NCBI GenBank assembly: GCA_023802575.1
Contig: GCA_023802575.1_3947.1
Reading direction: 5' to 3' (one strand)
Length of the DNA stretch: 64,000 nucleotides
DNA from: a phage
Below are positions 39,000 to 40,600 of the stretch, in pieces; the first letter of the stretch is position 1; every line of letters begins with the position of its first letter. The translations under genes and the position numbers were made by a program. The notes under the pieces were generated by a model. It searched no databases. It saw only the letters and a program-made list of their open reading frames with translations, and was not told the origin of the DNA.

Positions 39000-40600
39000 G
39001 TAAAATTTACGAAATTTATATTTTTTATAAAATTTATCGGTTGTTCCAACCTCTGGGTCACCATGATATGTGAACAAAGTATCTAACCTTCTTAACAGCC
39101 TTCTTAATCTTACTCTCTATATAGTTATATAGTACTATATAGTATCTTAGTAACTATCTAGTGGTCTTAATAGCCATCTGTATAGCCCTTCTAAATAGCC
39201 CTCTAAACACTCTTCTAACAAGCCTTCTTAACAACCTATACAATCACCTTAACCATCTCTCTATACCCTCTTAGAAGCTCCTATACACCTCTTAATCTCT
39301 ATGTCAGCTATGTTACCCTCTATAGGTGTTCACTAGGTATTACTAAGCCTCTATATAGACTGTTTTAACAAACTTAACAGGAATGTCTTCACAGACCTTA
39401 TCTCACAAGGTCTAACACGGCACTAACAAGGTATCTTATAAGCCTGTTTCTACCTGTATTTTTAAAAGACTGTATAGGTAATTATTCAGATTTTTAAAAT
39501 TTTTATAAAATAGGACTATCAAGTCATTTTTTAGGGTCTTTGAAGGAACTGAAAAATATCTGTAGAAGATGTATATCTGCTTGGTAGCCCTTAACATCCC
39601 TGTAACATCCCCTTTGCAAAATTTTAAAATATCCTTAACAATCTCTTAACAGTTCTCACATCTTCTTAACATCTCTTCAAAGGTCTTAACAGATTCTTAA
39701 CAGAACTAACAAGGGCTTAACAGTTTCTTAACAGTCGATACATGGTCTTTATAGTCTCTTAACAGATGACTAACAAGAGCTAACAAGTTAATTTTTAAGA
39801 GTTATTTTGTTAAGATAATTAACAAGTTCCTAACGAGTGTCTAATCTTTTTAACAAGCTATTAACATGGTCACTACTCTTCTCTTATCGTTCCCTTTCCT
39901 TTCTTAGTGATTCTTTAAACATACCTCTTAAAAGCTCTCTATAGCTCCTTGTAAGCTCTTTTAAGCCTCTCCCTAGTAATTACACCCCAACTGTACAGAT
40001 ACCTCTTTATAGGGCTTTACAGGGGCTTTAAAGGCTATGCCAAAGGTTCTTACAAGGCTTTTACGTGGTTTTAACAGAGATTTAACAAGGGGCTAACAAG
40101 TTGCTAACAAGTGCCTTAAAAGCATAACTATGTAGGATTTGTTAAGAAATTGTTAAGAAAATGTTAAGGGGGCTAGCATTTACGTAACTTTATAGCCCCT
40201 TTTACGTAACTTTAAAGCCCCTATAACATACTTTTTAGTGACTATCAAGAGGTTGTTTAGTTATTCACAAGAATACTAATGAGATGATAAAGCTTACACC
40301 CTTATAAGATTCTTTTAAGCCTCTATAAAGCCCTGTAAAGAGCTTTTTAAGGCTGGTTAATGCAATCCCTTAAGTTAGGTTGATAAGGCTGATATAGAGC
40401 TTTATAGAGCGTTTAAACGGTTGCCCTTCCCTTTCGGGTTATAGGCTTATATTTAAGTTGATTTGATAAAAGGTTATAGAGTAAACTATAGAGTTATTGC
40501 TTTTTAAGGTATGAGATAGATTCTATCGAATTAGTGGGATAGATTCTAGGAAGGAAAGGGAAAGGGTTGTATAGAGGCTATTACATAGACGTAAAAAAGC
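39000..40600. repeat. About 1.6-kb non-coding region dense in short repeated motifs
   Basis: No ORF of 60 aa or more; dozens of YTAACAR copies, CTATA(G/C) variants, AT-rich tracts, and direct repeats ttacgtaacttta(t/a)agcccct. Confidence 0.7.

Follow-up and report, generated by a model that had tools for sequence, protein, structure and literature searches.

Introduction

Felix O1-like phages have wide use in the typing, biocontrol and therapy of Salmonella and Escherichia coli, and work to rebuild and engineer them in vitro is now under way. To our knowledge, the formation of exact short terminal repeats by terminases is poorly understood outside T7. For several of these phages a direct terminal repeat (DTR) has been described: that of UAB_Phi87, whose ends were located experimentally with Bal31 and run-off sequencing, is 608 bp long (Bardina et al. 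2016, PMC4837284), and PhageTerm analysis yielded 581 bp for Pr103Blw (PMC8303462) and 613 bp for Ro111lw (PMC6454146) and detected DTRs in D4 and H12 (PMC11737134). PhageTerm also indicated short DTRs in Erwinia Kolesnikvirus phages (PMC11984208). Motif arrays, flanks and end symmetry are not mentioned in the consulted passages of the papers on UAB_Phi87, Pr103Blw, Ro111lw, D4 and H12, and our literature search returned neither an account of about 30 phased TTAACA sites, mirrored flank motifs, inverted cut sites or strong conservation over 1.6 kb, nor a paper on a replication origin for these phages. Here we analyze such a region, the non-coding hub at positions 39000-40600 of a phage sequence of 64,000 nucleotides (nt) (GenBank assembly GCA_023802575.1, contig GCA_023802575.1_3947.1); this whole stretch is referred to as the window, and all positions are those of the window.

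We consider it quite likely that the hub is a concatemer-junction region with a short exact DTR in its middle, whose phased motif arrays form a putative platform for protein binding. Homology, together with the published experiment on a relative, shows what this predicted repeat is and where its limits lie; protein binding at the arrays, and a role of that binding in cutting and packaging, we infer. An initial annotation made from the letters alone had described the hub as a motif-rich non-coding region and proposed a replication origin, a partition site or arrays of binding sites, with a non-coding RNA as a further option. It did not name a terminal repeat, which on present evidence is the best-supported identity of the region.

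Identity and limits of the terminal repeat

The window is assigned by its sequence to Felixounavirus, that is, to a lytic Felix O1-like myophage. A megablast search with positions 38900-40700 matched 256 phage records, nearly all of them Felixounavirus and allied Ounavirinae whose hosts are Escherichia, Salmonella, Shigella and Citrobacter, and the top match was 92% identical over the full length. The gene layout of the window also agrees with that published for Felix O1 (PMC3185647).

Three deposited genomes of relatives, which come from different laboratories and were fetched at both ends, repeat their beginning exactly at the end of the record, with 0 mismatches over the first 581 bp in D4 (PP886228), 591 bp in ZX4221 (OR498728) and 628 bp in NBEco004 (MN994498). 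Both limits of all three repeats map to positions 39583 and 40173, giving a predicted DTR of 591 bp (39583-40173, not assigned to a strand) in the window. Many other GenBank records of relatives begin or end within the hub, always at either of these two points. The printed DTR sequence of UAB_Phi87 (Figure S1 of PMC4837284) aligns to positions 40165-39581 with 87.7% identity. Judged by sequence, the DTR of the window is thus orthologous to the published Felixounavirus DTR, and the kind of element is already known; the DTRs of UAB_Phi87 (the orthologous one), Pr103Blw, Ro111lw, D4 and H12 lie between the same convergent genes and belong to one size class of 581-628 bp. By homology, the repeat would be duplicated at both ends of the virion DNA; only one copy is seen in the window, as the source record was opened elsewhere than at the physical end.

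To follow the element beyond these records, we aligned the hub from 27 distinct genomes of three genera, namely Felixounavirus, Mooglevirus (Mijalis, Sf18, Sf19) and Suspvirus (SUSP1). Across this set the length of the DTR-homologous span is 559-658 bp, and the differences are often about 11 bp.

Phased TAACA arrays inside the repeat

The clustering of YTAACAR noticed in the initial annotation is real. The hub holds 25 of the 91 copies in the window, 22 on the + strand and 3 on the - strand, between positions 39092 and 40156, which corresponds to about 15 times the background density (0.9 and 0.8 copies per 1.6 kb on the two strands outside the hub), and the window total exceeds that of every one of 100 dinucleotide shuffles. 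The run tcttaacagattcttaacagaactaacaagggcttaacagtttcttaacag, for example, is located at 39684-39734. Counting bare TAACA cores, the hub contains 33, and their spacing is far from random: 11 of the 27 nearest-neighbor distances on the + strand are exactly 11 bp, whereas 20,000 random placements gave 0.5 on average and never more than 5. Pairwise distances peak at 11, 20-22, 31-33, 42-44, 51-53 and 62-64 bp. As these are multiples of about 10.5 bp, the sites are expected to lie on one face of the helix.

Twenty rightward cores fall inside the DTR and cluster at 39592-39868 and 40072-40111. The first cluster is the main array, built of 18 + strand copies of (C/T)TTAACA(R) and one inverted copy, mostly 11 bp apart, and the second consists of four + strand units at exactly 11-bp spacing. 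Beside the right-hand cut the orientation of the cores flips, and three inverted 11-bp units (TGTTAAGAAAN; 40139-40173, - strand) abut the cut, with 2-6 copies in relatives. The stretch just inside the right cut varies in exact 11-bp steps (118, 129, 140 and 151 bp), implying that the helical phase is kept when copy number changes. Between the clusters lie three phased CTTTA(T/C/A)AG units (40003-40033, + strand), which form a 31-nt inverted repeat, 87% complementary, with an inverted triple of CTTTA(N)AG units (40312-40342, - strand) that mirrors them outside the DTR.

Conservation follows the motif. Over the 27 genomes the TTAACA core is conserved at 0.96-0.97 and the spacers at 0.83-0.90, and for the outgroup genomes only the values are 0.80-0.92 and 0.67-0.75. 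Motif counts and orientations are alike in all 27. The helical phasing, this footprint of conserved cores and the persistence of the arrays across genera are what arrays of binding sites would be expected to display, so that this part of the initial annotation fits well. We also scanned IMG/VR for three TTAACA units 11 bp apart. The matches listed were mostly due to chance, and among them only Felix O1-like and Erwinia-phage contigs reach 22-26 TAACA per 600 bp, the others having at most 15; the scan yielded nothing firm on other lineages.

Symmetric cut sites and mirrored flanks

The left end-generation site (39567-39597, not assigned to a strand) reads G(A/G)TGTATATCTGCTT before and GGTAGCCCT(T/A)AACA after the cut, which is placed between 39582 and 39583, the sequence at the limit itself being TGTATATCTGCTT followed by GGTAGCCCTTAACATCCCTGTAACA. 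The right site (40154-40190, likewise unstranded) reads ATGTTAAGGGGGC before and TA(G/A)C(A/T)TTTACGT(A/T)AC after a cut between 40173 and 40174, where the limit sequence is TTGTTAAGAAATTGTTAAGAAAATGTTAAGGGGGC followed by TAGCATTTACGTAAC. Both sites are nearly invariant across the aligned genomes, both boxes in the window are identical to the consensus, and the left box occurs only once in the 64 kb.

The two boundaries are inverted copies of one another, (GGTA)GCCCTTAACAT... at the left and ...ATGTTAAGGGGGC at the right. Two units follow inside the left cut and three inverted units inside the right cut, all at 11 bp, with the result that both termini, read inward, open with G..GCCC(CC)TTAACAT and carry more units at +11 and +22. 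Some of the aligned genomes (four sequences) have a 24-nt insertion, TTGATTCGGTAGAATCTACCTCAT, just left of 39567 and 15 nt before the left cut; it starts like the DTR (GGTAG), holds the near-palindrome GGTAGAATCTACC and resembles GATAGATTCTATC in the right flank (40515-40527). A cruciform or dyad at the right cut was considered and rejected. The inverted repeat 40003-40033/40312-40342 is symmetric about 40172.5 in the window only, and in 26 relatives the distances of its arms to the cut (118-151 and 125-247 bp) vary independently, which makes the exact dyad symmetry a coincidence; the arms are mirrored motif triplets.

The order continues outside the repeat. The left flank (39037-39440) is conserved non-coding DNA just inside the right-hand DTR copy in virion position, with CTCTATA(G/C), CTATATAG and CTTAACA motifs all in + orientation; it is 94% conserved within the genus, 58% of its positions are invariant over the three genera, and its GC skew is -0.38. 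CTCTATA occurs there 3-4 times on the + strand and 0 times on the - strand in 27 of 27 genomes. The right flank has five TATAGAG units, that is, inverted CTCTATA (40393-40576, - strand), and in all genomes 3-5 copies on the - strand against 0-2 on the + strand. CTCTATA and CTTTANAG units therefore flank the DTR in mirrored orientation. The CTATA(G/C) variants of the initial annotation are concentrated in the hub, where 11 of the window's 18 CTCTATA copies are found. The other seven have nothing in common in their surroundings, and we dropped the idea that CTCTATA is a promoter element used elsewhere.

Next to the left cut, 23-142 bp outside it, lies a conserved A+T-rich tract (39441-39560, no strand), the A/T tract of the initial annotation. 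Its conservation within the genus is 97%, with 59% of positions invariant, and A+T makes up 73% of the span 39441-39582. The tract contains GACTATCAAG (39514-39523), 69 bp outside the left cut. A second copy in the same orientation lies at 40240-40249, 67 bp outside the right cut, and, allowing one mismatch, we counted 17 occurrences of this 10-mer in the window where 4.9 would be expected. The copy at 40243-40255 matches the IHF consensus WATCAANNNNTTR, 70 bp outside the right cut, and CTATCAAG is also present in the left flank of Erwinia phiEa21-4. Just outside the DTR on the right, a direct repeat had been annotated as 20 nt long. The repeat is present, and its actual form is a tandem pair of 22-bp copies (40179-40222, + strand) of TTTACGTAACTTTA(T/A)AGCCCCT, 95% identical, each holding the palindrome TTACGTAA; the second copy is missing in some relatives.

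Conservation of the hub across genera

The hub is 90-93% identical within the genus and 77-79% identical between genera, whereas for the two flanking proteins identity between the same genera falls to 49% and 40%, and their DNA gives no blastn match. The hub thus appears to be under stronger constraint than its coding neighbors. The neighborhoods of both cuts rank among its best-conserved parts.

For the more distant Erwinia phages phiEa21-4 and vEam_PM_27, the alignable part of the hub shrinks to 127 bp around the left cut, and TGTATATCTGCTT is also kept in phiEa21-4. The corresponding gap of about 1.4 kb nevertheless contains about 31 TAAC(A/C) sites (TAACA and TAACC, on both strands) at spacings of 11, 12, 20 and 22 bp, and the 418-bp Erwinia DTR has rightward units at its left and inverted units at its right. 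The right end of vEam_PM_27 is homologous as well, reading ...AAAGTGGC followed by TAAC (end box CGAAATGTAAAAGTGGC, then TAAC). At precisely this end, positions 1-8 of the vEam_PM_27 record (PP079184.1) are TCCGATCT, the tail of an Illumina adapter that was deposited along with the genome, which marks a true physical DNA end. In the flanks of phiEa21-4 (positions 3066-3365 and 2191-2286 of its hub sequence), 13 copies of (C/T)T(T/G)AGAAG, not mirrored, stand where Felix-type phages have CTCTATA and CTTTANAG units. Between genera, the flank motifs have thus been replaced and the TAACA arrays kept.

Gene arms and neighboring features

The hub lies, as annotated, where two transcription arms converge: the + strand genes end at 38959 and the - strand genes at 40656, and each arm is closed by a terminator hairpin. 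The rightward arm ends in an intrinsic terminator at 38968-38998 (+ strand), a hairpin with a T-run (-15.2 kcal/mol, z -2.8), and a terminator is annotated at the homologous position in KhF3 and AYO145A. The one closing the leftward arm, at 40593-40621 (- strand; -14.5 kcal/mol, z -3.5, followed by a U-run), is annotated in AYO145A and Mijalis. The absence of a credible open reading frame (ORF) is borne out too, since there is none of at least 60 amino acids (aa) between the arms and only one of at least 40 aa inside, a 53-aa ORF on the - strand (39436-39597) that we rejected because it has lost its start or gained stops or frameshifts in most of 26 relatives. Several deposited genomes (LMP25/33/34, Meda, Sl26 and D4 among them) have 2-5 'hypothetical proteins' annotated in the hub, none of them conserved.

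The large terminase subunit TerL is encoded 16 kb away (21929-23545, - strand) and is T4-type, with matches to Pfam Terminase_6N (5e-42) and Terminase_6C (4e-33) and to PHROG 979; the portal protein of the window is Mu-type according to Pfam. Upstream of the terminase gene, 26 tRNA genes form a block on the - strand (23975-28986), and small ORFs called inside this block (e.g. 23859-24086) overlap tRNA genes and are spurious. On the other side of the hub, the early-gene arm (40896-46959, - strand) has repeated intergenic cassettes of 70 nt (six copies), 104 nt (six) and 39 nt (eight), each showing, on the - strand, a GC-rich hairpin and then a ribosome-binding site with an ATG; the 57-bp and 39-bp repeats described in Felix O1 are probably their counterparts.

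The window as a whole contains no GATC, compared with 178 +/- 13 in dinucleotide shuffles, and GATC is also absent from 45 kb of phage D4, from the hub sequence of Erwinia phiEa21-4 and from three further sequences. Many 6-bp palindromes are missing as well (AGATCT, CTGCAG, CTCGAG, CCATGG and others). The absence of GATC points to what may be a very strong avoidance of restriction or Dam sites, and the Felix O1 genome paper makes no mention of it.

Proposed mechanism and alternative explanations

If the hub acts as a concatemer junction, one DTR copy would lie between successive genomes in the concatemer and one copy at each end of the virion DNA. Because the two cut sites are inverted copies, the terminase could nick symmetrically: TerL would nick opposite strands at the two boxes, about 591 bp apart, with two-fold symmetry, and the repeat would afterwards be doubled by strand-displacement synthesis, following the model proposed for T7. 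The approximately 30 TTAACA cores and the mirrored flank motifs would offer docking sites to a protein that recognizes this sequence, marks the junction and determines the position or geometry of the cuts, and the terminators on both sides would keep convergent transcription out of the site. A bolder version, which we put forward tentatively and which may well prove wrong, holds that the TTAACA arrays are read by a dedicated DNA-binding protein, conserved across Ounavirinae, that coats the whole DTR and is a non-canonical replacement for the small terminase, which seems to be missing from these phages, with the mirrored boundaries specifying staggered nicks about 590 bp apart. If true, the recognition signal would be the repeat itself and not a site beside it.

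Several points weigh against the junction and its proposed platform. The DTR boundaries of this particular phage are assigned by homology, and the run-off ends of UAB_Phi87 differ from the sequencing-derived ends, being 2 nt longer on the left and 8 nt shorter on the right, which makes the exact nucleotide of each cut slightly uncertain. In the vEam_PM_27 record the left end is 22 nt further in, and in Erwinia phages the flank motifs are conserved neither in sequence nor in orientation. In the records consulted, a small terminase is neither annotated for D4 nor reported for UAB_Phi87 (PMC4837284), and we found no candidate for the array-binding protein. The 66-aa gene upstream of TerL, tried as a small terminase, encodes an acidic two-helix hairpin that is unlikely to bind DNA. 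Finally, a role of the arrays in packaging is inferred, and sequence alone cannot separate it from one in replication, end protection or ejection. A second small-terminase candidate, a 75-aa ORF, was discarded as it overlaps tRNA genes.

The serious rival is a replication origin, alone or besides the DTR, in which TAACA would be the initiator-binding iteron and the A+T-rich tract 39441-39560 the unwinding element. We think it unlikely, though far from negligible: the first 300 bp of the repeat (39583-39880) contain 17 TAACA/TGTTA cores, mostly 11 bp apart, the arrays start about 30 bp from the conserved A+T-rich tract, the region is shielded from transcription by two terminators, and T7 has secondary origins near its ends. 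However, motif orientation and boundary units track the two DTR limits and not the A+T tract, the 5-7-bp cores are much shorter than classical iterons of 17-22 bp, and there is no cluster of DnaA boxes, only one DnaA-box-like site matching at 8 of 9 positions. Nor was an initiator gene found: a Pfam scan of six flanking genes gave no significant family, and the five hub-adjacent genes fall into PHROGs families of unknown function only. The GC-skew analysis suggested by the initial annotation did reveal skew turns, but they coincide with gene-strand changes, are thus confounded by gene orientation and are uninformative on an origin. The partition site of the initial annotation is implausible in a lytic phage, and here too the scan of the six flanking genes yielded no significant Pfam family. 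A little less probable again than an origin is that the arrays bind a protein for another function of the ends, such as exonuclease protection, pairing of ends for recombination or concatemer formation, or control of ejection. Arrays inside the repeat are necessarily present at both virion ends, and the two termini, read inward, carry GCCC(CC)TTAACAT and the units at +11 and +22 in the same orientation, both of which speak for such a role; on the other hand, the symmetric arrangement is equally expected from symmetric nicking by the terminase, and a candidate protein was not found.

The remaining explanations find still less room. TTAACA resembles a -35 element (TTGACA) and TATAG a -10 element, so that the hub might be a promoter-like cluster or act as a decoy that draws RNA polymerase or a host factor, and its 10 sigma-70-like matches include one of 10/12 (TTAACA-N16-TATAGT, 39728-39755). 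We regard this as improbable, given that the excess over shuffles (6.0 +/- 2.5) is below 2 standard deviations, that the best site is not conserved and lies where hub conservation is among the lowest, and that neither strand has a gene downstream. The non-coding RNA of the initial annotation fares worse and now looks very improbable. The hub is long, conserved and free of ORFs, and 40380-40600 folds better than shuffles (z -2.7 and -3.3), but conservation is lowest in just this segment, the z values of the remaining five range from -2.0 to +0.3 on both strands, an Rfam search gave nothing inside the hub at E<=1, G makes up only 11-12% of the top strand in the two motif-rich blocks of 39037-39880, and no conserved promoter was found in the hub, its good promoter-like site included. 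Equally remote is the idea that the hub is dispensable spacer whose repeats arose neutrally by replication slippage. Isolates do differ in their number of 11-bp units, yet the hub is better conserved between genera than the flanking genes, the motif core better than its spacers, and Erwinia phages retain the motif and its layout although the rest of their hub is unalignable.

Implications and comparison with known systems

For those who engineer these phages, the true ends and the constrained region of about 1.6 kb indicate which DNA to keep intact, and for annotators the 'hypothetical proteins' called in the hub of many GenBank records are spurious. The general nature of the element is not surprising; its map of cis-elements is useful for studying exact short repeats, because the Ounavirinae hub offers a testable layout of two symmetric cut boxes, phased arrays and natural variants in the copy number of an 11-bp unit.

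Each of the known systems shares some of these features. Iteron origins such as lambda ori and P1 oriR also place phased direct repeats beside an A+T-rich tract; in the hub, however, the cores are much shorter, an adjacent initiator gene was not found and the sites track the DTR limits. At P1 pac, the hexamer TGATCA/G is repeated four and three times on either side of the cut and acts as the signal recognized for cleavage, and the hub similarly has clusters of a short motif beside the cleavage point. P1 packages by headful with permuted ends, and its pac repeats contain GATC and are controlled by Dam methylation, whereas the window has 0 GATC and the ends of the relatives are exact. In lambda, cosB combines the small-terminase sites R1-R3 with an IHF site, and nicks 12 bp apart generate 12-nt cohesive ends. 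Phased sites beside a symmetric nicking site are common to both, and the hub has one IHF-consensus match, but its nick sites are about 591 bp apart and its sites number about 30 as opposed to 3.

The concatemer junction of T7 and T3 has a 160-bp terminal repeat flanked by short-repeat arrays. Like it, the hub has a short, exact, non-coding terminal repeat with iterated motifs, and its ends would arise from concatemers with duplication of the repeat; in contrast to T7, the arrays are mostly internal to the repeat, which is about 3.7 times longer. The terminase of the hub phage matches Pfam Terminase_6. T7 RNA polymerase pauses at the concatemer junction (PMC3276506), and T7 needs this pausing of its own polymerase, whereas the hub has terminators facing inward on both flanks and a phage RNA polymerase was found neither among the genes scanned nor in the D4 annotation of the first 45 kb. 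As the dependence on transcription by the phage polymerase does not carry over, the hub resembles the T7 junction only in outline.

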